A DNA stretch of 64,000 bases from an uncultured Candidatus Binatia bacterium (GTDB taxonomy: Bacteria > Desulfobacterota > Binatia > Bin18), in assembly GCA_965200965.1 (NCBI GenBank), contig OZ241744.1:832001-896000 (forward strand). The letters run 5' to 3'. Positions 40,332 to 57,572 of this stretch are shown here, piece after piece; the first letter of the stretch is position 1, and each line of letters starts with the position of its first letter. The notes below the pieces were generated by a model. The model had not been told where the DNA came from, did no database searches, and worked only from the letters and a program-made list of their open reading frames with translations. A program made the translations under genes and the position numbers.

Positions 40332-41051
40332 ATGTGCAGTTGTAGACACCTGGTTCTGGTTGTCCTGGGTATTCCTGTTCTGGCCCTTTCAAGTGCTTGG
40401 GGCTATGAGGACGGAGTTGTGAGTAACGGGGGAAAGATTGTCGGAACCGTAAAGTTTGTCGGTGAGGCCCCGGCTATGGTCAAGATTGAGACGACCAAAG
40501 ATGTAGAGGTGTGCGGCAAAACCGAGAAGTTTGACGAGGCGCTTGTTGTCGGCGATGGGAACGGGCTGAAGAATGTCGTCGTGTCCATTGTCAACATTGA
40601 AAAGGGCAAGGCCCAGGCTGCCGAGGGGGGCACTCTTGACCAGAAGGAATGTGTGTACCGCCCGCGTGTCATCCTCTCGCCAGCCGGGGCTGAGTTGAAT
40701 ATCTTGAACAACGACGGGATTTTGCACAATATCCACACCTACAGCGAAGCCAACCCCCCAATCAACAAAGCCCAGCCCAAGTTCCGCAGGAAGATGACGC
40801 AGAAATTCGACAAAGCCGAAACGGTTCGGGTTGAGTGCGATGCGCATAGTTGGATGAAGGGTTGGCTGGTTGTGACCGACCATCCGTACTATGCTGTCAC
40901 TGACGCTAGTGGGATGTTTGAGCTGGCAGAGGTGCCGGCCGGTTCGTATATCCTGAGATTCTGGCATGAAACGCTAGGTGAAATGACGCAGGATGTGACA
41001 GTCGAGGCTGGTCAATTGGTCTCGCTCACAGTTGAAATGGTCCAGAACTGA
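40332..41051 (+). CDS. Secreted cupredoxin-like/carboxypeptidase-regulatory-like domain protein
   Basis: Signal peptide; DQKEC..P, HNIH, CDAHSWM and HPYYAVTD..G.F motifs. Confidence 0.8.
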   Translation: MCSCRHLVLVVLGIPVLALSSAWGYEDGVVSNGGKIVGTVKFVGEAPAMVKIETTKDVEVCGKTEKFDEALVVGDGNGLKNVVVSIVNIEKGKAQAAEGGTLDQKECVYRPRVILSPAGAELNILNNDGILHNIHTYSEANPPINKAQPKFRRKMTQKFDKAETVRVECDAHSWMKGWLVVTDHPYYAVTDASGMFELAEVPAGSYILRFWHETLGEMTQDVTVEAGQLVSLTVEMVQN

Positions 41052-41097
41052 TTTTTCCAGGACTGTTTTCAGAAGAGGCTTCCAGCCTCTCCTTCAT

Positions 41098-41133
41098 AAA
41101 ACCATTTATTGACTATAGTCAATAAATGGTTTT
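41098..41133. repeat. 36-bp perfect palindrome centred on TGACTATAGTCA
   Basis: AAAACCATTTATTGACTATAGTCAATAAATGGTTTT is its own reverse complement. Confidence 0.9.
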
Positions 41134-41197
41134 CCAAAAAACGCTTTTCTGGTTAGGTATTGTCTCGTTATGTCCTGATATTTTGTCTCCAAAGGAC

Positions 41198-41753
41198 CTA
41201 AAAATGAAATGCAATGACGATGCGATGGATGAGATACGAATCGGAATTTTCAGCGTTGGAGAAGGGAGGAATTGTGATCAAAAGTATTATAGTGTCGCGG
41301 ACACTTTGATATCGCCTTCGACATCTGTCCCCCCAAGTGTGGGCAGGCTCTGCCGACAGAACCGGACTACCTGAACGTTCCAGGTGCTGATACAGACCCT
41401 CGGCCTGCTTCCATATCCGGTATATCTCGTTGCAGACGTTGGTCTTGGCCGTGGTCTTGCTCTTTCTTGCCGGGGCTTTTTTCCGTGTCGGCTTCGTCTT
41501 TTCCCCCCACTTGGCATCCCACTCGGCCTGCGCTTCTTTCGCTTCCTTCGCCCACCTAGCGTTTGCCTCCTCTTGCGCCCGCTTCGCCTTCGATGAGTTC
41601 ATACACCGACTCGACTTCCTGCTCGTGAGGAACCTCTTGCTTCTACCGTAAATCTGCAAGCTCCGGGCTGATTTCGTATGTGAGCGGTGGTTTCTGAACC
41701 GCGCATCCTGCCACCACCAACGCCAGGGCTAGGGGTAAGAGGGTTTTCTTCAT
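41198..41753 (-). pseudogene. Fragmented lipoprotein gene
   Basis: Lipoprotein signal MKKTLLPLALALVVAGC, premature TAG at 41643-41645; protein-like continuation (AQEEANARWAKEAKEAQAEW) in a shifted frame. Confidence 0.5.
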
Positions 41754-41812
41754 TCCCGTTCCTTCTTGCTGAACCCGGCCGTGCTGGGCAGAGCCGGGGC
41801 TATCCGTTGGGG

Positions 41813-42273
41813 TTAGTTGCACCACCTCGGGTTTATCAGGACATAGCCCTGTTTACTCTCTTCCCAAGTGACTGAAACAGACCGATTAGGAAAAATGGGG
41901 TGTGGGATAGTCTCACAGAACGATTCAACACCTCGGACAAACTCCTGCCCCAATGTCGACACCCGGAAATCGTTTGCCGTGACGAGTGTATCGTTCACAA
42001 CTAGCCCCATGCGGTGTGTTCCATCCCCAAGCAGATTCCAGTTGAAGAGCAAGCCAAAGCCGTTATTGGTATCGCCGCATGCTCTGAGCGTATCGCCGCG
42101 GGCGGTTCCATAGGCAGGATAGAGCGGGCCAACGCTCCCCCTAGATGTAGCAACGCTTCTGTCCGGGTTGTAGCATAGGGCGGGGTAGATGTTGCCGTTG
42201 TGGTGGCAGTCTGTCCGAAGGCCGGACTAGCCAAGGCCAACACCATCATCAACATAAAAATCGCCTTCATCAT
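41813..42273 (-). pseudogene. Frameshifted secreted protein with an RGDT-x3-CGD-x2-NGF-x4-NW domain
   Basis: Signal MMKAIFMLMMVLALASPAFG in one frame; AYGTARGDTLRACGDTNNGFGLLFNWNLLGDGTH..STLGQEFVRG in another. Confidence 0.65.
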
Positions 42274-42427
42274 TCTTCCTTCCTTCCTGAACCCCGAGGC
42301 CGACGAGTAACGCAATCTTGCGTTTGAGTCAAACATCATGCCCTGCCCAGTATAGACGGGTTTATAAGAGAGGAGACGGAAGGCTGTGAAGGGCTACTGG
42401 CAAAAGATTATGCCTATAAAAAATATA

Positions 42428-42439
42428 TGACTATAGTCA
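42428..42439. promoter_or_regulatory. TGACTATAGTCA palindrome, copy 2
   Basis: Exact 12-mer in AT-rich intergenic DNA; regulatory role inferred. Confidence 0.65.
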
Positions 42440-42541
42440 AAATTACTCTGTCAAATCATATAAAAATCTCTGTTCTGTACATTTAGAGTTATTTTTTAGC
42501 TGAATAAGTGTTTGTTCGCATGGTTTTAATTTTTGAAAAAT

Positions 42542-42567
42542 TATTTTATGACTATAGTCATAAAATA
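42542..42567. promoter_or_regulatory. 26-bp perfect palindrome, TGACTATAGTCA copy 3
   Basis: TATTTTATGACTATAGTCATAAAATA is self-complementary. Confidence 0.7.
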
Positions 42568-42721
42568 TCGTTTTTTCTCAAAGACAGACGGCGAAGCTGG
42601 TTAATTCCGACCATCAATGTTCACTGCCTAATCAGTTAGGAGTCTCGCTGAGGACCCAGACCAACCATCCTTACAACAGTAAGCGGTGTGTTGCGACAGT
42701 GTGGGAGAACGCGCCCGAAGG

Positions 42722-42736
42722 TGAACGATGATGACC
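42722..42736 (+). repeat. Intergenic repeat core TGAACGATGATGACC, copy 2
   Basis: Identical 15-mer at 44076 (+) and 30949-30963 (-). Confidence 0.7.
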
Positions 42737-42786
42737 CTCATCATCAGGAAGAAATTATTGTTCGCCTTTGCGTCGGTATAATCTAT

Positions 42787-42814
42787 TATTGACATAATAT
42801 ATCTTATCAGACAT
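42787..42814 (-). other. Putative dif site (XerC/XerD chromosome dimer resolution)
   Basis: ATGTCTGATAA-GATATA-TTATGTCAATA has the 11-6-11 layout of E. coli dif GGTGCGCATAA-TGTATA-TTATGTTAAAT; intergenic and AT-rich. Confidence 0.8.
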
Positions 42815-42836
42815 AAAAGATTATATTGCTTCCCCC

Positions 42837-43505
42837 TTAATCAAGCTTCCGCTCAACCAACTCCTTCAGGAGCGAATTGTCGGCCATCTCTGCAAACTTT
42901 TGATAGTACGATTGGGCCTGCGTGCGATCATTGGTTTTTTCAAAAATCCTGGCCGATGATAAAAAGGCCTGTGACTGCGTCGGACCGTCTATCTCGGCAG
43001 CTTGCATATAACGGCTCTTGGCGAGCGCGATTTCCCCGGCCTGTTCTGCGACCTCGCCCAGCTTGAGCAAAGCCAGTTGCACCAAGTAATGGTCACCGTG
43101 CTTGGCGTCTGCTGCAACGGCTTGGTAGGCCCGAGCCGCTTTCCCAAACTCCCGCTGCTGCTGATAGGCGTGGCCGAGGTGCCACAAGGCCAACTGACGC
43201 GGCTGCCCGCCTAAACGGGCAGCCGCGGTTTCAAAATGCCGAATTGACCCGTCCAGAGCGTCCGGTATCAGGGTTTCTTCTGCACTTGCCGCTAAGCCCG
43301 CTCGCAGGGCTTCTAATCCGCTCGCGGTCTGGTAGTGCCAAAAGAGGCTGACACCGCCCCACACCACTAGCACGACTAGTCCAACGCCAGCCACGGTGGT
43401 CAGCAATCCCTGCCGTGGCTGACTCCAACTCGAAATCTGACGCGCCCATTCAGACAGATGCTCAAAGGGGTAACGAGTTAAGGCCGCTTTTCGTTCGGGG
43501 CGCAT
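42837..43505 (-). CDS. Membrane-anchored TPR-like protein (YfgM-like)
   Basis: Single TM followed by helical repeats (ALWHLGHAY, ALLKLGEV, AQSYYQK). Confidence 0.75.
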   Translation of the reverse strand: MRPERKAALTRYPFEHLSEWARQISSWSQPRQGLLTTVAGVGLVVLVVWGGVSLFWHYQTASGLEALRAGLAASAEETLIPDALDGSIRHFETAAARLGGQPRQLALWHLGHAYQQQREFGKAARAYQAVAADAKHGDHYLVQLALLKLGEVAEQAGEIALAKSRYMQAAEIDGPTQSQAFLSSARIFEKTNDRTQAQSYYQKFAEMADNSLLKELVERKLD

Positions 43506-43511
43506 ACCGCT

Positions 43512-44033
43512 CTACATCTTGTATTTGAAATCGTCGGGAGACATTTTTTCAAGAATCTCGGCCCACTTGTCGCGCGAGACATTCGACAGGTTAGTGTCGT
43601 CTTTTTGCCCCTCTTCGATCTGTTGCAACACGCTGGACGCCTCAAGCACCTGCTTGGCTACAAAGATCGGACTTTTGGTCCGTAGGGCTAAGGAAATCGC
43701 ATCGCTGGGGCGAGCATCAATGCTCAGCGTTTTATCCCCGGCCCGCAGGCAAATCGAGGCGTAATAGGTGTTGTCCTTGAGTTCGGTGACCTCAATCAAT
43801 TCAACTTGGCCGCCCAGCTCATCAATCAGCGTACGCAGCAAATCGTGGGTCATGGGCCGCGCCATCTGAATGCTCTCCAGTTCGGTGGCCATGGCTGTGG
43901 CTTCCATAAGACCGATCCAAATCGGCAGATTGAGTTTATTGTCCACATCCTTGAGGATGACGATCGGGGTTTTGGTCATTGGGTCAAGAGTCAACCCCCC
44001 GACACGCATCTCAACAAAATTCTCTCGGGCCAT
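43512..44033 (-). CDS. Bifunctional nuclease family protein (DUF151/BFN)
   Basis: LPIWIG..EA, RPMTHDL and IDARPSDAI motifs. Confidence 0.93.
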   Translation of the reverse strand: MARENFVEMRVGGLTLDPMTKTPIVILKDVDNKLNLPIWIGLMEATAMATELESIQMARPMTHDLLRTLIDELGGQVELIEVTELKDNTYYASICLRAGDKTLSIDARPSDAISLALRTKSPIFVAKQVLEASSVLQQIEEGQKDDTNLSNVSRDKWAEILEKMSPDDFKYKM

Positions 44034-44075
44034 GTTTCCCCCTTGCTCTGCCCTCACGCAGCCTTGGTCCCGTAC

Positions 44076-44117
44076 TGAACGATGATGACCTCCTCTCATC
44101 AGGAGGAGAGCAGCGTA
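44076..44117 (+). repeat. Intergenic repeat, copy 3 (core plus AGG..GAGA.CAGCGTA tail)
   Basis: Shares the 15-bp core and the CAGCGTA tail with the gatA-gatB copy. Confidence 0.7.
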
Positions 44118-44146
44118 CACTTCGCCCCGCAGCGTCAATTCGGCAT

Positions 44147-45559
44147 TCAGGCGGTGACCAGACGATCAATAACACGGTACAGTTGGTTCAGGTTGCGGCA
44201 CTCTTCAACCATGCTGCAGTATGGCGCGTAGCGATCCATTTCACTGTCCCCAAATCCCCAGGTGAGCTTGCTCTCCGGGTTGAGCCAGATCACCTGCTTG
44301 GCGCGCTGTTGGAGCTCTCTGAGCACCCACTCGTGGGGCAGATTGTAGTTATTGCGGGCATCCCCCAAGACGATGACCGTGGTGCGTTTGTTGATGATCG
44401 AAAAATGGTCACGGTGAAACGTTCGAAACGCCCGGCCAAAGTCCGAGTGGGCGTAGATGTTAATAATATTTCCCCGTAGCGATAAGTCGATGGCCGAATG
44501 GATATCGTTGTCCTCAAACAGTCGGGTGACCTCGCCGAGGTCAGCGACAAAAATATAGCTCCGCACCCGCGAGTACAAATCCTGAATAGAATAGACAAAC
44601 TGGAGCATGAAGCGCGAGACGTTGCGCACCGAGTCTGACACGTCGCACAAGATGACGACCTGGGGCTTTTCTTTTTTCTTTTTGTCAAGCACGATCTTAA
44701 ACGGCACGCCCCCATACTGGAGGTTTTTGCGTAACGTCTGCTGGAGATCAAAGCGGCCCTTTTTAGCGTGTTTGCGGCGGATGGCAATAACCTGCTTGAA
44801 GCGCTGGGCCAGCTTGGCCACCGCCTCTTTCATTTTCCGAATCTCGTCTTCAGTCAGATAGTAGAAGCTCTTATCGGCCAAGCTGCGCATCTTTTGCTGG
44901 TCACGAACCTGAGAGTCCCGCTTTTCCAGTTCAGCCCGCACATAGCTGCGAATCATATGGGCCAAGTCCTGCAGACGGCGGTCCAGATAGGTCATCATCT
45001 GTTCAATCTGTTCGGTCGACAGGCCCGCCTGCTGCAGGGCGTCTTTCATATCCGCCAACTCTTGGGTCAACTGGCCGAAGCCGAGTTGTTGGGCGACCGC
45101 ATTGGCAAACTGTCCCTCTTGAAACGAGCGCTGGATATCTTGCAGGTTGGCCTGCTCGGCCGCTTCGCGCAGCAGGCGTTCCAACTGGCCGGTGTTGTTC
45201 TCGAGCAGCGCCTGGGCTAGTTCGGACAGATCAGACCCCATGATTTCAAGCGCTTCCTTGAGTTGATCGAGAAACTGCTGGAACTCTTCTTCAGACATCT
45301 CCATGGCCTGCATGGTCGCTGTACCAGCCTCTTTGATGATTTCCCCCAAACCGCTGAAAAACATGTCAAACAGTTCGTCATAGGTCTGTATATCAACCGC
45401 TCGCTTGACCAGAGTTGAACGCAGCGTATCCTTGACCACTGCGCGCTCACCAAGACCGATCAGACCGAGCGCGGCGAACGTGTCCATATTTTCAGCGGCC
45501 GACACCTTGAGGCCGTTCTGACGCAAGAGATTGCCAAATTCGATGATTTTATCGTCCAT
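44147..45559 (-). CDS. VWA domain protein (CoxE-like)
   Basis: MIDAS-like CDVSDSV, LGDARNNY and WLNPE motifs; follows the MoxR ATPase. Confidence 0.9.
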   Translation of the reverse strand: MDDKIIEFGNLLRQNGLKVSAAENMDTFAALGLIGLGERAVVKDTLRSTLVKRAVDIQTYDELFDMFFSGLGEIIKEAGTATMQAMEMSEEEFQQFLDQLKEALEIMGSDLSELAQALLENNTGQLERLLREAAEQANLQDIQRSFQEGQFANAVAQQLGFGQLTQELADMKDALQQAGLSTEQIEQMMTYLDRRLQDLAHMIRSYVRAELEKRDSQVRDQQKMRSLADKSFYYLTEDEIRKMKEAVAKLAQRFKQVIAIRRKHAKKGRFDLQQTLRKNLQYGGVPFKIVLDKKKKEKPQVVILCDVSDSVRNVSRFMLQFVYSIQDLYSRVRSYIFVADLGEVTRLFEDNDIHSAIDLSLRGNIINIYAHSDFGRAFRTFHRDHFSIINKRTTVIVLGDARNNYNLPHEWVLRELQQRAKQVIWLNPESKLTWGFGDSEMDRYAPYCSMVEECRNLNQLYRVIDRLVTA

Positions 45560-45658
45560 GAGTCCTCTCCCAAAGTGAGCGATGACAGGCGCTTTATGCA
45601 GAAGATACCATTGGCCCACTTTGCTCATCGTAGTGCAAGCGGCCGCCCTCTCCCCTGT

Positions 45659-46615
45659 TTAGTGTAAGAGGTCTTCGTGCTCGCCCTCTTCAACGGTTTG
45701 GGCTTTCTTCTTTTGCAGGTAGTCCTTTAACTCCGCCTCGGCTTTACGCACATCTCCCTCATATTTCAGGATGGCGTTCAGAGTCTCGTTGACCACCCCT
45801 TCCTCAAGCTTATGCACATTGAGCAGGGTCAGGGCCTTGGCCCAGTCCAGGGTTTCGCTGATGCTGGGGACCTTTTTCAGGTCCAGTTTGCGAATATTCT
45901 GGATGATCTCGACCACCTCCCCAGCCAGTTTCTCGGACACTCCCGGGACCTTGAGTTTGACAATATCGAGTTCCTGTTTGTGATCTGGAAAATCGATATA
46001 CAGGTGGAGGCAGCGCCGCTTGAGCGCGTCAGACATCTCCCGCGCGTTATTACTGGTCAGCACGACGAGCGGGATATGCTTGGCCTGAAGCGTGCCCAGT
46101 TCCGGCACACTGACCTGAAAATCGCTCAGCACCTCGAGTAAAAAGGCTTCAAACTCACTGTCTGATTTGTCGATCTCATCAATCAGCAGGACTAACCGCT
46201 CGTTGGCCGATATGGCTTGCAGGAGAGGCCGCGGCAGAATGAAGCGGTCAGAAAAGAACACTGTATCCTGGTCTGCAATCCGCTCAACCGCGTCTTTGAG
46301 GGTCGCCGTCCCTTCAAGGGTTTCGCTGATTTTGTCCTTAAGAATCTGCGTATACAGCAGCTGCTTGGCATACTCCCACTCATACAGCGCCTTAGCCTCA
46401 TCGAGCCCCTCATAGCACTGCAGACGGATCAATTGGCACCGCAGAGACGCCGCCACGACTTTGGCTAACTCGGTCTTGCCAACTCCGGCTGGCCCTTCCA
46501 CCAGAATCGGTTTTCGCAGATGACTCGCCAAGTAGACGATCGTTGCAATACGCCGATCACAGATATACTGCTCGTCGGCAAATTTACTGATCACATCTTC
46601 AATAGATTCGAACAT
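45659..46615 (-). CDS. MoxR family AAA+ ATPase (CoxD-like)
   Basis: EGPAGVGKT, RLQCYEG, LLIDEIDK and DALKRRC motifs. Confidence 0.93.
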   Translation of the reverse strand: MFESIEDVISKFADEQYICDRRIATIVYLASHLRKPILVEGPAGVGKTELAKVVAASLRCQLIRLQCYEGLDEAKALYEWEYAKQLLYTQILKDKISETLEGTATLKDAVERIADQDTVFFSDRFILPRPLLQAISANERLVLLIDEIDKSDSEFEAFLLEVLSDFQVSVPELGTLQAKHIPLVVLTSNNAREMSDALKRRCLHLYIDFPDHKQELDIVKLKVPGVSEKLAGEVVEIIQNIRKLDLKKVPSISETLDWAKALTLLNVHKLEEGVVNETLNAILKYEGDVRKAEAELKDYLQKKKAQTVEEGEHEDLLH

Positions 46616-46738
46616 CCTTCCTCCCCAAGGCGAGTGATTTGGGCCAACCTAGCACAAGGGTAGGCGAAAGACAACGCGCACACCCAACCGGTACCGCTTG
46701 CGCCCGGCAACGCTCCGCCTCTATAATCCGTCCCCGTT

Positions 46739-47506
46739 ATGTGTACCCTGGCTCTGTATTTCCGCGTTTTTGCCGACTCTCCCATTGTGGTCGCGGCCAA
46801 CCGTGATGAATTGCTCGCCCGCCCCTCAGATCCCCCTCTTCAACTGGCGATCAATCCCTGGATATGGGGCGGGCGTGATCGGATCGCCGGCGGCACATGG
46901 CTAGGCGTGAATGCCGCCGGCGTCATGGCCGGTATTCTTAACCGCCAGTCCCCCCTCCCCCCAGACCCAAGTCGCCGCTCACGCGGTCAACTCTGCCTCG
47001 ACGCCCTGCGCTATCCATCGGCCACCCAAGCTGCCGAACAGATCATTCGTCACTTTCCGCACGAATATAATCCTTTCACCCTGGTGATCGCTGATACACA
47101 GCGAGCCTACGCCATCAACACGGCACCTATTGCCCTCGCCCTGCACACCCTCAAGCCCGGTCTCTACCTGTTTACCAACCGTGATTTTAACGACCCCAGT
47201 TGTCCCCGCATTGCGCGTCTGCTCCCCCATTTCCAACAGCTCAGCCAGACGACAGAGCAGCCTGCCTTTGCCGCTCTGGGTCCCCAACTACGCCACCTTA
47301 TGGCCGACCACGGTACCCGTCCTCCCGAACTGGAGGGAGCGCCCTCCGAGCCCGATACCCGTAACAGCCTGTGCCTGCACCTGGACGGCTATGGCACATG
47401 TTCGTCCACCCTCCTAGCCTATCAGACCGAAGTCCAGTCTTACCACTATCTGTTTGCCCCGGGTGCCCCATGTCAGCACCCTTATGAGATGGTGTCTCTG
47501 CCGTAA
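46739..47506 (+). CDS. NRDE/TANGO2 family protein
   Basis: MCT start, AANRDE, GRD..AGGTWLG and YGTCSST motifs. Confidence 0.92.
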   Translation: MCTLALYFRVFADSPIVVAANRDELLARPSDPPLQLAINPWIWGGRDRIAGGTWLGVNAAGVMAGILNRQSPLPPDPSRRSRGQLCLDALRYPSATQAAEQIIRHFPHEYNPFTLVIADTQRAYAINTAPIALALHTLKPGLYLFTNRDFNDPSCPRIARLLPHFQQLSQTTEQPAFAALGPQLRHLMADHGTRPPELEGAPSEPDTRNSLCLHLDGYGTCSSTLLAYQTEVQSYHYLFAPGAPCQHPYEMVSLP

Positions 47507-47539
47507 AGGTCAACGATCTCTTCCTGCTTATGAGGATCG

Positions 47540-48283
47540 TCATTGACCTTCCAGCCCAGACGCTAACCAGCCCCCGTCAAGCACATAAGTCGCGCCCGAT
47601 ATAAAATCTCCCTGCTCGATCAGAAAGCGTACTGTACGGGCTACATCGTGCGGGCTGCCAAGCCGGCCCAGGGGCGTGTTGCGGCGGAGGCGTTCCAACT
47701 CGGCAGTCGTGTATATGGCGGGCGGTAAGACCGGGCCGGGCGCAATCGTATTGACTTGGACCTGGGGTGCCAGGGCTTTGGCCAAGGCTAGACTCAGGGT
47801 CTGGATACCGCCTTTGGACACACAATAGGCTAAATAGTCCTGGGACGGCCGCAGCCCGCTCCAGTCGCCGAGCTGAATAATTTTTCCCGCCCCCTGACGA
47901 CACATGACCCGACCCAACTGGATTCCTAAACAGAACGCCGCGGTCAAATTTGTGTGTAGAAAAGCGTTCCAGTCCGCAGTGCTGAGCCGGGCAATGGGGG
48001 TCGGGTAAAAGAGGGCAGCATTATTCACTAGCACATCGACCCGGCCGTCGAACTCCAGGGCCTGATCGCCCAACCGTTGGACATCTGCCACCCGGCGCAA
48101 GTCCGCCTTGAGGATATGTGTCCGACGTCCACGCAGGCGGATAGCAGCCGCCAACTCCCGCGCAGAAGAGGTATGGACATGCAAGATGACATCCGCCCCA
48201 GCCTCGGCCAGCGTCAGGGCAATGGCCCGTCCCAACCGCCGGGCCGCCCCGGTCACCAGCGCAACACATCCCTCTAGTTGCAT
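47540..48283 (-). CDS. Pteridine reductase-like SDR (FolM/PTR1 type)
   Basis: TGAARRLG (Arg-containing cofactor loop), NNAALFYPT, YCVSK and IAPG motifs. Confidence 0.85.
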   Translation of the reverse strand: MQLEGCVALVTGAARRLGRAIALTLAEAGADVILHVHTSSARELAAAIRLRGRRTHILKADLRRVADVQRLGDQALEFDGRVDVLVNNAALFYPTPIARLSTADWNAFLHTNLTAAFCLGIQLGRVMCRQGAGKIIQLGDWSGLRPSQDYLAYCVSKGGIQTLSLALAKALAPQVQVNTIAPGPVLPPAIYTTAELERLRRNTPLGRLGSPHDVARTVRFLIEQGDFISGATYVLDGGWLASGLEGQ

Positions 48284-48594
48284 CTCTGGCCCCGCTATCA
48301 GCTTTCTCGATCGGCACTGTGGCAAAGGCGAATTTGGATATGTTGCCGCGCGATCTCAGCGTAGCGGAGGGTCAAGGTGCGCATGAAGATATGCGCTGCC
48401 CTAACCGGTAGACAAACGAGATACAGGCCACTTGACCCCATCTGTAACAATAACCGTGATTTTTTCCATGGTTTTGACCCTTTGAGTGAGGACTGTGACT
48501 GTATGGGTTTATCCAGAAAGGGTCAAGAAAAAGACGATCCACCCATATTACTCCTTCAACCGGACACAACCTTCCAGCTTCCAGAAGCCAAATA

Positions 48595-48925
48595 CATATA
48601 ATAAGCAAGTAATAATTTTCTGAAAAATAAAAAGAAATAAAATTAGAATAAAAATTATTGCTAAAGAAATAATAAAGTAAAAAATAACTAAATAAAAAGA
48701 AAAACAGAAGAAAAGATTTTTCTTAGTAAATTCAATATGTTAGAAGAATATTAACCTCGCTTCAGATCTATTTTAGTCACGAAGACAAAATAGAAAACAG
48801 GAAAGAAATTTGGCGATCAGTAATAATAGCTTGGATTTTATAGCCCAAGTAATAAATAATGGCCTTTTCCACAGAGTTAAGAAATACTGTGGATAAAACA
48901 CAGCAACAAAAGACAGGAAACAAGC
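48595..48925. promoter_or_regulatory. Very A-rich intergenic tract with two DnaA-box-like 9-mers
   Basis: Long A/T runs at 48595-48760; TTTTCCACA at 48865-48873 and TGTGGATAA at 48888-48896. Confidence 0.5.
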
Positions 48926-49681
48926 ATGGAAGCGAGTACCACAGCACGGCGGGGAGTCCGCCCAAAAAGTCCGAATGCCCCGGCCTACACCATCCAGGAG
49001 TGCTTGGAGGATATCCGCAAAATCTTTCGAGCAGAGCATCAAGTCCCGATTAGCCGGGAGTCTATAGCCGAACACCTGAGTTTGGCGGCACAATCGGGGC
49101 CTTTTAACAGGAAACTGAGCAGTCTACGTCAATTTGGCTTGCTTGAGCCAATCGGTAAGGACCTTCGGGTGAGCGACCTGTTTTTGCGTATTGAGCACGC
49201 CGCAGACGAAAACGATCGCTATCATGCCCTGCGAGAAGCCATAGGCCGGCCGACCATCTTTCAAGGCTTGCTCGGCCAATACGAAAACAGCGGTACGCCT
49301 TCGGATATCAACCTGACGAACCAGTTGATTATCAAATATCGTTTCACCAAAAAGAACGCCGAAACTGTCTCAAAAGCGTTTTTAGAATCTTACCGATTTG
49401 CCGGTCTAGGACCGCAAACGCGCCCGCTGTCTTCACCGGCTCTGCCCTTCCCCGCTCCTCCAGCACCGCCTCCAATACCCGATCCGTCTCCCTCGGTGCA
49501 GCCTATCCCCACGGTCCCCTCCCCTATTCCAAACGAGCCGCCTCACCGGCCTCAGTGCCGTCAGGAAATCCCGCTCGGCACAGCTCGACGCGCCGTGCTT
49601 GAGCTGCCTGACGACGTGACACCCGAGGAAATCGCCAAAGTGATACGGGTCCTTAAAGCCCTGGTCGACACCGACACCTAA
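48926..49681 (+). CDS. Uncharacterised protein: probable winged-helix N-domain, Pro-rich linker, small C-domain
   Basis: KSPNAPAYTI..ISRESIAEHL..KLSSLRQFGLLE pattern; PAPPAPPPIPDP linker. Confidence 0.75.
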   Translation: MEASTTARRGVRPKSPNAPAYTIQECLEDIRKIFRAEHQVPISRESIAEHLSLAAQSGPFNRKLSSLRQFGLLEPIGKDLRVSDLFLRIEHAADENDRYHALREAIGRPTIFQGLLGQYENSGTPSDINLTNQLIIKYRFTKKNAETVSKAFLESYRFAGLGPQTRPLSSPALPFPAPPAPPPIPDPSPSVQPIPTVPSPIPNEPPHRPQCRQEIPLGTARRAVLELPDDVTPEEIAKVIRVLKALVDTDT

Positions 49682-49933
49682 GCGATCCCGAGTCGGACAA
49701 GGAGCACGGACATGTCTGAGCAGGCGGCCCTTTCTGCCAAGCCTTGGAGAATCTGTTCTTTCGATAAGAGAACTGGATCAACGCTGTCTTTTCCAACATA
49801 ATTCGTCCGCTCCGCAAAATTATGTCAACTTTATTCTCTTCCGCCTCTTTCACTCCAGACAAAACTGACCTATTGACCGGCTATCTGGATTTCTGCATTG
49901 TAGGTCCAGTTCGGATTCACAGTTGAGGAACAT

Positions 49934-50782
49934 ATGCACTACTTGACCCGCCTAGTCGAATTTGAGGCCTCACACCGGTACTGGAACCCGGACTTCACAC
50001 CGGAGCACAACCACCAGACCTTTGGGAAATGTGTCAGCCCCTACGGTCACGGCCATAACTATGTACTCCACGTCACCCTGGCCGGCCGGGTGGCCCCCCA
50101 CACCGGCATGGTCATCAATATCACTGAACTTGACCGTATTCTCAAACAGGTCAGCGCCGAGTTTGACCACAAGTTCATCAACCTTGACCACTCAGCCTTT
50201 CACGACCGCATCCCAACGACCGAAAACCTTGCGTCGTATATGCGCGACCGCATTGAAGACACGCTTTGCACCCAGCACCACGCAGACTACCGCCTCACTC
50301 TGGTCCGGCTGTCTGAAGAACCCAGCCTGTGGTCTGATGTGATTGGTGGAGAAGGAAAGAATATGGCCTCCTTAACCAAGACCTTCGGTTTCAGCGCGGC
50401 GCACCGCTTACACAGCAACGCACTCTCCGAGGAAGAAAACCGGGCCGTTTTCGGCAAGTGTAACAATCAGCACGGGCACGGGCACAACTACGAGCTCGAA
50501 GTAACGGTCAGCGGTCCCATCGCTCCACAGACCGGCATGGTCATGAACTTGGCAGTGTTGATGCGCATTGTCCGGGAAGAAGTGCTGGACCGCTTTGACC
50601 ATAAACATCTGAATGAGGATACCTTGGAATTTCAAACCCTTAACCCGACCGGCGAAAACATTGTCCGGGTGATCTGGGACCTGCTCAAGCCACGAGTCGG
50701 CGAGCGCCTGACCAAGGTCGGGCTGTGGGAAACGCCCAAAAACTTCTTTGAGTACCACGGCGAAGAAGGTGATTGCTCCTGA
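49934..50782 (+). CDS. Tandem-domain 6-pyruvoyl-tetrahydropterin synthase (PTPS/QueD family)
   Basis: Two domains, each with F.A.HR..FGKC-x5-HGHNY, DHK and T.EN. Confidence 0.92.
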   Translation: MHYLTRLVEFEASHRYWNPDFTPEHNHQTFGKCVSPYGHGHNYVLHVTLAGRVAPHTGMVINITELDRILKQVSAEFDHKFINLDHSAFHDRIPTTENLASYMRDRIEDTLCTQHHADYRLTLVRLSEEPSLWSDVIGGEGKNMASLTKTFGFSAAHRLHSNALSEEENRAVFGKCNNQHGHGHNYELEVTVSGPIAPQTGMVMNLAVLMRIVREEVLDRFDHKHLNEDTLEFQTLNPTGENIVRVIWDLLKPRVGERLTKVGLWETPKNFFEYHGEEGDCS

Positions 50783-50806
50783 CCGCTGCATCAAGAGAGG
50801 AATCGT

Positions 50807-51532
50807 ATGCCCAGACAAGCGCTGAACGGTCGGGTCGCTATTGTCACCGGCGCGGGATCGGGCCTGGGCCAAGCCATCGCCGTGGCCCTCGGCGCGGCGG
50901 GCGTTCGGGTCGCCTTAGCGTCACGCACCAAGCCGGCGCTTGAGGCCGTAGCCGACGAGATTCGCACGCCTGGCGGGACTGCCCTTGTCATTCCCACCGA
51001 TGTCGGCGATGAAGCCCAGATTCAACACTTAGTCGGCCACACCCATCAGGAATGGGGGCATATTGATATTCTTGTTACCAGCGCTGGTGGTGCCAGTTTT
51101 GGGCCGCTGGTCGAGTCCAGCACCCAAGACTGGGACAGTATGATGAGGACGAACCTGCGGGCGACCTATCTCTGCGCCAAGCATACGCTGAAGGTTATGC
51201 TGGCCCAGCAGAGCGGCCATATCTTGAACATCCTGTCCTTAGCCAGCCAGACTGCCCTCCCCGGCTCGGCAGCTTATACTGCCTCCAAATTTGGTGCTTT
51301 AGGGCTGACCAAGGTCATGGCCGCCGAGGTGCGCAGTCAGGGCGTCAAAGTCACCGCAGTAATCCCCGGCGCGGTCAATACGCCGCTGTGGGATAAGAGC
51401 GGCGGCGACTTAGACCGCACCAAGATGCTCACCCCTGGCGATGTTGCCGACGCCATACTTGACGTTATTGCCCAGCCTCCAGGCATCTATACCGACGGAA
51501 TTTCTCTGATGCCCCCTTTAGGTATTCTGTGA
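50807..51532 (+). CDS. SDR, candidate sepiapterin reductase
   Basis: TGAGSGLG, YTASK and PGAVNTPLW motifs; directly behind the PTPS gene. Confidence 0.75.
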   Translation: MPRQALNGRVAIVTGAGSGLGQAIAVALGAAGVRVALASRTKPALEAVADEIRTPGGTALVIPTDVGDEAQIQHLVGHTHQEWGHIDILVTSAGGASFGPLVESSTQDWDSMMRTNLRATYLCAKHTLKVMLAQQSGHILNILSLASQTALPGSAAYTASKFGALGLTKVMAAEVRSQGVKVTAVIPGAVNTPLWDKSGGDLDRTKMLTPGDVADAILDVIAQPPGIYTDGISLMPPLGIL

Positions 51533-51544
51533 GGATGGTGAGGA

Positions 51545-51633
51545 CGGAGGGAGTGGGATTTGAACCCACGAGAGCCCGCTAAGGCTCTGCCGGTTTTCAA
51601 GACCGGTGCATTCGACCGCTCTGCCATCCCTCC
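51545..51633 (-). tRNA. tRNA-Ser (TGA anticodon), CCA not encoded
   Basis: GGAGGGA/TCCCTCC acceptor stem, anticodon loop CT-TGA-AA, long variable arm, GGTTCAAATCC T-arm. Confidence 0.97.
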
Positions 51634-51775
51634 CACGCCGGACAAGACGCCATCTAACACGCTCCTGTGCCCCCGTCCAGGGCTGCTCGTATCCCAGCTA
51701 GCCTTAAAAAGCATCTCCCCTCGGACACTCTCTGGATAATAAACCAGAGGGTGTCCGAGTTGATAGAATATCATA

Positions 51776-51793
51776 TATTGACTATAGTCAATA
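51776..51793. promoter_or_regulatory. 18-bp palindrome, TGACTATAGTCA copy 4, upstream of tRNA-Ser
   Basis: TATTGACTATAGTCAATA; the minus strand reads TTGACT followed by TGA-TATTCT (possible extended -10). Confidence 0.65.
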
Positions 51794-55672: not shown

Positions 55673-57572
55673 TCAGCCGGGGAGGAACAGGGGATGCGAG
55701 ATGCCCCGGTCTTCCAGCGGCGTCCCAGCCCAGTCTTTCCCAACCGTTGTCTCGACCTCAATTGGCACGCGGTCGCCAATAATCTCGCGCATGGCCGCGG
55801 TCATGTGGTGGGCCAGCCACTGCGCGGCGTGGCCGGCCTCGGCCAGCGGGGCTTCGGCCACAATTTCGTCGTGGACGCAGGCCACCGGAAACGCTCCGGG
55901 CACCTCATGGCGGTGTTCAAACAGGCGACCCAAAGCCAGCTTCAGCCCGTCCCCGCCGGTACCCTGGACCGGGATGTTGAGCAGAACATTGAAATGGCGA
56001 ACGCCGAGAAACCGCCTGCCGGTCAGGGTGCGGGTCTCAAGGGTTTGCTGCCTGCGCTGGACGTGTTCGAGCTGGCGTTTGGCCTGCTGATGCCAACGCT
56101 GGAGGCCCTGATAGGTGCGAAAGAAAGCCTGGTGATAGCCGGCAGCCTCGGCCTCGGTCATCGTCACCCCATACTTGGCTTCGGCATCCAGCCTGAGCCC
56201 GCGGATACCCATGCCGTACAGCAGGCCGAAGTTCACGCTTTTGGCCAGTTGACGGTGCTGTGTGTGGACCTCGGCCAGGGGAAGCCGGAGAATGCGTGAG
56301 GCGGTCAAGGCATGTAAATCGGTCCGCTCACGAAACGCCCGCAGCATAGTCTCGTCGCCGGCCAGGGCCGCGGCGATGCGCAGCTCAATCTGTGAATAAT
56401 CGGCCCGAATAAGCGCCCTGCCCGGCTCTGCCTGGAAACAGGCACGAAAGGCCACGCTTTTGGGGACCTGCTGGATATTGGGCCCGCCGCAGCTCATCCG
56501 GCCGGTTGCCGCGCCGTTTTGAAAATAGACCGGATAGACCCGCCCGGTTTGGGGGTCACATGAGGAATCAATGACTGCCCGGCCGTAGGTATTCACCCGC
56601 TTGGCAAGCTCTTTGTAGGCCACGAGGAGACGCGCCAGCAGATGATCGACCTTTTTTAAGGTATCGGCTCGGGTGTTGGGCAAAACAATGCCGAAGTTGT
56701 GGAACAGCCGCTTCACCTGCTGGTGCGAAAGCCAGTTGACAGCCCTCCCCTGACCGGCAACCGCGCTATCGAGCTGGTCTTTGAGGTCGGCCAAACGGGC
56801 CTCGTCATCCAGGGTGCGGGCCAGCCAGCCCTCGGAGTCAAAGCCCATGCCCTGCATTTCGAGCCAGGCCAGCCCCTTGACGCAGCGGAACTCAATATCC
56901 GCCGCCCGCTCCAGGCCAGCGTCGTGGAGGGCGGCCTGCAAGCCGGTGTACAGCGGCCACAGAACGGCCACATCGCGGGCCGCGTAGGCACGCTGTGGTT
57001 CGGACAGCTCGGCCTGGGTCCAGTCACTGGCACGGACCGTTTTTGGGCAGGCTCAGGTCGAGCTGACGCTGTACCAGGTCTTCCAGGCCATGTCCGACGC
57101 GCAGCCCGGCCGTCAGCAGTTGACTGGCCAACATGGTGTCAAAGATATGCCGCGGCCAGGGCAGCCCGGCGCGGACCAGGAACTTCACATCAAACTTGGC
57201 GTTGTGAAAAATCCACACCCGGTCGTTTTCAAACACCGGGGCCAAGGCTTGGGGCGGCAGCGCGCAGGCATCAAACAGGTAGACGTGTTCAGGGCTTGCA
57301 ATCTGGATCAGCCGCAAGGCATCTTTTCGGCAGTCCAGACCCGTTGTTTCGGTATCACAGGCAAGGGCTGGGGCGGACAGGAGTCGGGGCACAAGCTGGG
57401 TAAGGTGGCTGAGGCGGGAAACACAGGTGTAGGCTGGGGTTGGACAGGGGGGACGCTGCTCTCTTCCCAATCGGTGCTCACCGTCGGTACCCTTGAAGGC
57501 GTGCCCCGCCCCAGCCGGCCTGGTCGGCCGGTCAAACTCTTCGGGGAACAGCACCCCCTGCTGTTCATCCAT
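55673..57572 (-). pseudogene. Family A DNA polymerase (3'-5' exonuclease plus polymerase, no 5' nuclease), split by one frameshift
   Basis: ExoI DTETTGL, ExoII HNAKFD, ExoIII YAARD, motif A DYSQIE, motif B AKSVNFGLLYG, motif C VHDE; one extra A in an A5 run near 57040-57044. Confidence 0.85.

Follow-up and report, generated by a model that had tools for sequence, protein, structure and literature searches.

Polar sites at the chromosome terminus of a Binatia order: a probable replication fork trap and its candidate terminator protein

In two reviews, replication fork traps are described only for Tus and RTP, with Tus in three gammaproteobacterial clades, RTP in some Bacillales, and most bacteria thought to be trap-less (PMC10331603; PMC6549158). 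In B. subtilis, terI lies ~0.1 kb from terII, and RTP arrests a fork when the strong B site faces that fork (PMC13220808). Here we analyse a set of sites in a 64,000-nucleotide stretch of an uncultured Candidatus Binatia bacterium (contig OZ241744.1, positions 832,001 to 896,000; hereafter the window). An earlier note on this DNA pointed to four copies of a palindromic 12-mer clustered around a putative dif, the XerCD-type site of chromosome dimer resolution, and proposed that they are matS-like sites that organise the terminus. The four palindromes form the central dyads of polar sites of 26 bp, laid out as opposed sets facing inward, and we consider it probable that these serve as Ter sites of an undescribed fork trap bound by P0001, the product of a gene at 48926-49681 of the window. 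With somewhat less assurance, we lean towards a fuller account. This would be a third, independently evolved bacterial fork trap, joining a polar 26-bp Ter site to a terminator from a large uncharacterised family that was domesticated at the root of one Binatia order. The terminator would be controlled by DnaA and not autoregulated, would block from the auxiliary face, opposite to RTP, and would be used by the plasmids of the order too.

The layout is like those of RTP-Ter and Tus-Ter, yet membership of both systems fails. With RTP-Ter the Binatia array shares polar sites that form opposing sets about the terminus, a spacing of ~0.1 kb in the innermost pair and a dif outside that pair. RTP is a winged-helix protein. 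In both systems a bipartite site of ~30 bp goes with a winged-helix protein encoded in the terminus region, the winged helix being a prediction for P0001. There are also differences. No RTP homologue is found (PF02334, 0/5 genomes at E<=0.1, the control scoring above the cut-off in B. subtilis), the site sequence is unrelated, and P0001 is a multi-domain protein of 251 aa. The tail of the Binatia site, not its dyad core, faces inward toward the fork that would be blocked. RTP has an autoregulatory Ter site in its promoter, whereas the P0001 gene has DnaA boxes, and nine sites over ~10% of the chromosome compare with 4-6 over ~10-190 kb in Binatia. Tus-Ter, as known from E. coli and from the narrow type I traps of Edwardsiella and Dickeya, likewise has polar sites flanking the terminus, a patchy distribution with lineage losses, related sites beside plasmid replication modules and sporadic homologues in mobile-looking DNA. 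Tus acts as a monomer, in contrast to the perfect dyad core here, and the P0001 promoter has no site; the Tus family (PF05472) was found in 0/5 genomes and in the E. coli control.

The matS analogy of the earlier note was wrong. The MatP-matS system of the E. coli Ter macrodomain does share a terminus-restricted dyad with TGAC/GTCA half-sites. However, matS has a 3-bp spacer and the Binatia dyad a 4-bp one, and the Binatia sites carry a one-sided tail and are strictly polar, with 4-6 copies and a direction switch over ~0.1 kb. E. coli matS is a 13-bp target in 23 copies over 800 kb (PMC3330122). TGAC-N3-GTCA occurs 51 times in the Binatia genome, spread all round it, and MatP (PF06303) was found in 0/5 genomes, with the E. 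coli and C. vibrioides controls found and the control over the cut-off in one genome. Orienting sequences of the KOPS/AIMS type are short motifs in high copy number that change their preferred strand at dif. AIMS are 8-mers (PMC5993296). The Binatia sites differ from both in being 26 bp long, in 4-6 copies, with a switch at the inner pair and dif outside it in 25/25 loci. A literature search, with subscription journals outside its coverage, returned the 12-mer only in one unrelated paper, and nothing on this lineage's terminus or on a third terminator.

A polar array opposite the origin

The 12-mer TGACTATAGTCA occurs exactly at window positions 41110, 42428, 42549 and 51779, as previously claimed. 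Four copies were reached in 0 of 100 shuffles of the window (shuffle mean 0.71). The window has no further match even with up to two mismatches, in agreement with the earlier observation of none in its first 41 kb, and in the closed single-contig genome of 3,620,516 bp the exact 12-mer is confined to these four positions. Perfect palindromes of 36, 12, 26 and 18 bp surround copies 1 to 4, the three extended ones being those already reported, and the 36-bp palindrome at site 1 is the longest perfect palindrome of the genome. The earlier note missed a one-sided tail, which makes each site polar. Alignment of the flanks gives TGACTATAGTCA-N8-WWTTCC, a whole site of 26 bp, and the consensus of the aligned one-sided element is TTGACTATAGTCAAAAantnntaTTCCaaa. 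With a matrix of the whole element, the four sites score 29.6-44.6 bits and the next-best site in the genome 6.9.

Site 1, the outlying left site (41110-41135, plus strand), has its core TGACTATAGTCA inside the 36-bp palindrome (41098-41133) and its tail (…TTTTCC) rightward, with an orientation score of +20.5 and 44.6 bits on the plus strand against 35.4 on the minus. Site 2, the left member of the inner pair (42428-42453, plus), has a degenerate tail in this genome, a leave-one-out score of +5.7, and 29.6 bits on the plus strand against 22.1. The right member, site 3 (42535-42560, minus; core 42549-42560), lies 121 bp from site 2 with its tail leftward (+12.4 inward; 39.5 bits on the minus strand against 26.0). 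The tail of site 4, the outlying right site (51765-51790, minus; core 51779-51790), also points leftward (-12.7; 40.7 bits on the minus strand against 25.4). Beyond the inner pair, ~310 bp from its midpoint, lies a 28-mer at 42787-42814 (minus) that we take, from its consensus, to be dif. It is the sole match to the dif pattern in the genome (32.6 bits; runner-up 14.7), and, as the earlier note held, the copies lie within 9 kb of it, copy 4 at 8,965 bp.

The cumulative GC skew, against which that note had suggested mapping the motif, peaks at genome position 873,300, or window 41,300. The gene dnaA, at 2,701,715, and a cluster of 15 DnaA boxes just downstream mark oriC (~2.703 Mb), and therefore the inner pair is 18 kb (0.5%) off the antipode of oriC. 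In 5/5 single-contig chromosomes the inner pair is 0.5-2.5% of chromosome length from the dnaA/oriC antipode. Unequal replichores, hinted at by a skew minimum at 2.48 Mb, were rejected, as oriC at 2.703 Mb leaves the arms almost equal. In this genome (G000) the skew minimum (2,481,858) and a parA homologue (~2,511,000) are ~200 kb from dnaA/oriC (2,702,800), and their displacement suggests a rearrangement near the origin.

The polarity holds among relatives. The core is nearly invariant. Of 86 distinct chromosomal sites, 57 carry the TTCC tail on a single side, the side itself having been picked by the matrix, and not one carries it on both. The asymmetry score was trained on inner pairs only. 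In leave-one-pair-out scoring 39 of 40 inner-pair members point inward, and for outlying sites kept out of training 12/12 orientations were predicted correctly. Among the matches listed, all 59 outlying sites on the pair's contig, in 23 genomes, face the inner pair. This count leaves aside second reads of a site in mirror orientation, any site on a contig other than that of the pair, and seven matches with two mismatches that are remote from the terminus (G020, G129, G162, G177 and three in G002), and one pattern tie (G020, 3,039,449) was decided by the matrix. G223 follows the same inward layout. The 8 bases on either side of the cores show greater self-complementarity inside a given site than across different sites (0.496 vs 0.425; 0 of 5,000 permutations), a possible trace of symmetric binding or of template-switch mutation where forks stall. 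With several copies present and flank self-complementarity this modest, a hairpin telomere is disfavoured.

The array stays at the terminus from genome to genome. The exact core clusters at dif in all seven other genomes of the genus, the close relatives in which the earlier note had proposed to look. In G016, the inner pair still adjoins dif although the flanking genes are entirely different. These results uphold the proposal of terminus-specific sites for an undescribed protein, while its matS part falls away. Over 25 loci the inner pair is spaced 107-132 bp and faces inward in 24 by a matrix trained on most of those same pairs, with dif 104-1,467 bp away and between the members in none. Each chromosome has 4-6 sites, whose direction flips across a gap of ~0.1 kb. 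The array extends over ~10-30 kb in genus g1, and the outer sites are ~35-60 kb apart in genus g8. The exact core is present in 16 of 24 genomes of the family and in 0/16 beyond it, and a class-level search finds the tailed pattern in 28 of 30 family genomes.

A candidate terminator gene lost with the sites

Comparison of 200 kb of terminus DNA from G020 and G014 picked out the gene at 48926-49681 (plus strand), which is co-inherited with the sites and had escaped the earlier note. That note had advised looking for DNA-binding proteins that co-occur with the motif, and P0001, with its predicted winged helix, is such a candidate. The gene has a match in 43 of the 56 genomes of the order and in 28 of the 31 that are >=90% complete with low contamination; profile searches place a P0001 ortholog in 27/30 family genomes and in G025. 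It lies 6-15 kb from the inner pair in 23/23 genomes. Outside the order only distant copies occur, in 5 of 169 genomes. Four distant copies that were inspected (three outside the order and a second copy in G212) have no sites nearby, and two of them adjoin transposase genes.

Three good genomes, G014, G105 and G089, have no P0001 homologue, a broad profile included, and in these the gene, the DnaA-box pair that precedes it elsewhere and the inner pair are all gone together. G014 and G105, both 100% complete, keep dif and have no pair and no site within the stretches read. In G089, where one contig spans the whole locus, two tail-less decayed cores remain, of 16.3 and 6.2 bits. In a run of 23 consecutive genes of G020, bounded by gatB and the second short-chain dehydrogenase gene, 22 are kept in all three genomes, and the P0001 gene is the only one of these syntenic genes to be missing. 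In a tree of the neighbouring VWA protein (G007 skipped, a duplicate G020 row dropped), G014 and G105 are sisters; the placement of G089 is weak, since the three group together in 58% of bootstrap trees. Ten further genomes, each <90% complete, also have no match to the gene. Among the four of these that were checked, the neighbouring gene is near a contig end in G001 and G023 and is missing too in G018 and G228.

An inverted pair of DnaA boxes (48865-48896; TTTTCCACA-N14-TGTGGATAA, recognised by what we take to be the box consensus) is located 30 bp 5' of the gene. Perfect inverted pairs number three in the genome, with oriC and the promoter of dnaA holding the other two; the number rises to 25 if each box may have one mismatch. 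Among 30 loci examined from the 43 genomes with the gene, a pair with 12-16 bp spacing precedes it in 28, the exceptions being L290, with a pair off-geometry, and L286, with one box. In genus g8 (L295, L297, L299, L306, L312), a conserved imperfect palindrome with half-site TATAGTCAAA is located just 5' of the DnaA boxes and may be a weak site for autoregulation.

No Pfam family reaches the cut-off for P0001, which has just a weak match to a Crp-type helix-turn-helix (HTH), and the same is true of 136 homologues. In one source a homologue is called a winged helix-turn-helix protein. The family comprises 4,312 clusters (50% identity) at E<=0.001. According to an AlphaFold model from a 136-row alignment (mean pLDDT 88.4; 59.7 for a shallower first model), P0001 would consist of a winged helix (residues 23-82), a second helical domain (84-158), a flexible proline-rich linker and a C-terminal beta-beta-alpha element (210-248). 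The best structural match is the recognition region of FokI (Z 8.2, rmsd 3.9, 149 aligned), P0001 having no nuclease domain. BrxA follows with Z 7.4, and MarR-type winged helices match residues 22-93 generically with Z about 7. What the model appears to have in common with the FokI-type recognition domain, BrxA and MarR is a helix-turn-helix DNA-recognition fold. Foldseek with the model at E<=0.001, a PDB sequence search with P0001, and plasmid tblastn with P0001 and P0130 gave no match, and in PHROGs at most 2 of the 136 family members fall to any one family. RTP is not among the best 50 structural-match rows, a list that excludes nothing. The homodimer prediction scored 0.17 against a mark of 0.42, and was counted neither for nor against.

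Other candidate binders were rejected. PadR is single-copy in 5/5 genomes, the site-less G014 and G105 included, and is encoded far from the terminus. Two plasmid proteins encoded beside a symmetric site occur in 13/56 and 3/56 genomes, neither of them in G000. The genes adjoining the sites have no DNA-binding gene in common.

Fork arrest weighed against other roles

The analysis shows that the sites are polar, that their two sets face inward opposite the origin, and that they disappear together with a gene preceded by a DnaA-box pair. In the mechanism that we propose, binding by P0001 and fork arrest would be as follows. A dimer would read the 12-bp dyad, while a further contact, with the AAAC-N5-TTCC extension on one side, would make the complex asymmetric. 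A fork reaching the core first would pass, and a fork reaching the tail first would stall, which is the polarity that a trap of this layout requires. The converging forks would fuse within the ~70 bp that separate the inner tails, and the outer sites would serve as back-ups. Regulation of the P0001 gene by DnaA may tie terminator supply to initiation.

Sites are also found on three contigs of 80-110 kb (G005, G041, G168), one on each, 60-70 bp before a gene of 365-370 aa that is presumably rep-like. This gene is divergent from parA and an HTH protein in a shared module (L067:2900-3700, L062:2400-3700, L088:6658-10434), with the site and repeated CCTAAGTAAA motifs in the interval that separates the divergent genes. 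We infer that the three contigs are plasmids. Plasmid R1 has ter sites near its origin (PMC10331603). A replication role is favoured because of the tight innermost pair, the polarity flip at the pair and not at dif, the DnaA boxes on the gene and the sites at plasmid replication modules.

Several observations weigh against a fork trap bound by P0001. The polarity that it needs is opposite to that of RTP, and the weaker-looking tail would have to face the blocked fork. All three plasmid-like sites are two-tailed and so would block both ways. Eleven more inward pairs, with spacings of 92-121 bp, are located elsewhere than at dif, on contigs from seven fragmented assemblies (G008, G011, G015, G019, G023, G229 and G231; loci L245, L246, L247, L248, L249, L251, L254, L256, L260, L262 and L069), several of them among insertion sequence (IS) or integrase genes and one with a clear dif-like site nearby. 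On a chromosome arm such pairs would obstruct forks. None was seen in single-contig chromosomes, and one trap per replicon, at the termini of secondary replicons, possibly accounts for them. The skew switches within ~1.2 kb of dif or the pair in the site-bearing G000, G020, G002 and G201, and is equally sharp in two genomes that have no sites, G014 (139 bp from dif) and G105 (~670 bp). Therefore, the skew lends no support. The P0001 promoter contains no array site (best 7.1 bits in 30 loci), whereas tus and rtp have one. The structural matches of P0001 are middling, with a best Z of 8.2, and the co-loss amounts to one or two events. Since the 59 outlying sites are largely orthologous among kin, they are not 59 independent draws. 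There are also irregular arrays: one G002 site is 359 kb away (a distance that assumes a circular contig), the left inner member of G025 scores outward, and G113 has no left inner partner.

The same protein and sites might instead organise the terminus, as a polar barrier or unloader for structural maintenance of chromosomes (SMC) extruders or as an anchor between Ter and the divisome, a directional analogue of MatP/matS. For an extruder coming from the origin, the first side encountered would be that of the core, which in RTP-Ter is the blocking side, and outer sites ~35-60 kb apart in g8 could suit loop control. Terminus unloaders exist, namely MatP for MukBEF (PMC8669397) and RipX/XerD in B. 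subtilis (PMC13220808), and the skew is the same in site-less genomes. However, an organising role leaves unexplained a conserved innermost pair with a minimum spacing of 107 bp, g1 arrays of just ~10-30 kb, the DnaA-box pair on the gene and the sites beside plasmid rep modules, and we hold it to be unlikely. Guidance or gating of FtsK/XerCD at dif, with the sites orienting or stopping the translocase or assisting dimer resolution as accessory sites, would suit the closeness of pair and dif in every one of the 25 loci where both were found, and their staying together as neighbours change. Yet dif never lies between the members, so that polarity flips at the pair and one inner site points away from dif. 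The distance between pair and dif also varies 14-fold, dif persists without the pair in G014, G105 and G089, and most extra pairs have no dif-like site (one clear case in eleven). Such a role is very unlikely. An Xer-type site was discarded by inspection, the 4-bp spacer being outside dif geometry.

The array could also be a trap or organiser with another binder, in which case P0001 would have disappeared from that lineage by coincidence or through some connected cause. The small number of loss events and the want of an autoregulatory site leave room for this, and the gene-loss comparison covered ~40 kb around dif and 200 kb of G014. It is nonetheless highly improbable, given that P0001 is the sole loss among 23 syntenic genes in all three genomes, is predicted to bind DNA, has the DnaA-box pair before its gene and has orthologues confined to the site-bearing order. 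The earlier note had already leaned away from a TetR-type operator, and we agree that the sites are not an operator set. A 12-bp TGAC-N4-GTCA dyad in AT-rich intergenic DNA, outlying sites that in some cases lie 5' of genes, and symmetric plasmid sites 60-70 bp before a rep-like gene would all be in character for a TetR- or MarR-type factor whose regulon lies near the terminus by chance. But the inner pair is between convergent genes in most relatives, no promoter-like match is found in 41000-42900, the downstream genes are unrelated enzymes that differ between genera and form no coherent regulon, and orientation tracks chromosome position, not gene direction. Operators are thus the least credible of these explanations, and extremely unlikely. 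An RNA terminator was likewise rejected, there being no terminator-like call at the sites and a nearly invariant core.

If the fork trap is real, a third trap in a distant lineage would mean that such systems have arisen more than once and escape searches based on homology. It would set a new mechanism of polar arrest beside Tus and RTP, give a first function to a family of thousands of hypothetical proteins, and link initiator and terminator through DnaA. Should the sites prove to be a barrier to SMC, that barrier would act in one direction, which would likewise be new. One 251-aa protein and a 26-bp site make the proposal testable in E. coli despite the uncultured host.

Wider occurrence and neighbouring DNA

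When the whole collection was scanned for two exact cores at a distance of 88-118 bp, 13 loci came up, of which 12 are of the Binatia pair type and one is a tandem array in Hymenobacter. In the latter, a Hymenobacter metallicola contig (L047:6001-6112), the 12-mer is repeated five times at 22-33 bp steps, with no tails and apparently within a reading frame, in an iteron-like manner. L046, a record titled Klebsiella pneumoniae, has a Binatia-type pair and dif at 56% GC and is probably a mislabelled bin. In family f9, matches in the four genomes inspected are scattered, GC-flanked and without polarity. Outside the order, 26 of 169 genomes have 1-3 two-mismatch matches, most of them uninspected. 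Viral sequences were rejected as site carriers, their 13 loci (best 18 bits) being taken as chance. A metagenome scan returned at least 118 loci, where Binatia-like contigs again show the pair and dif and the rest are mostly lone matches in AT-rich DNA.

In G005 (C2:4071-18807), four identical dif-like matches recur at intervals of exactly 4,906 bp, probably because the assembly repeats a small circular element in tandem. Within the window, site 4 has tRNA-Ser (51545-51633, minus) on one side and a DUF3565/DUF1971 gene on the other. Between sites 1 and 2, the segment 41198-42339 contains short open reading frames (ORFs) without a Pfam match and has the look of inserted DNA in decay; at this place other members of the genus encode a CxxCxxCC protein and have a second gene. 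Further along, at 55673-57572, a DNA polymerase family A domain and a 3'-5' exonuclease domain are listed as two separate ORFs.

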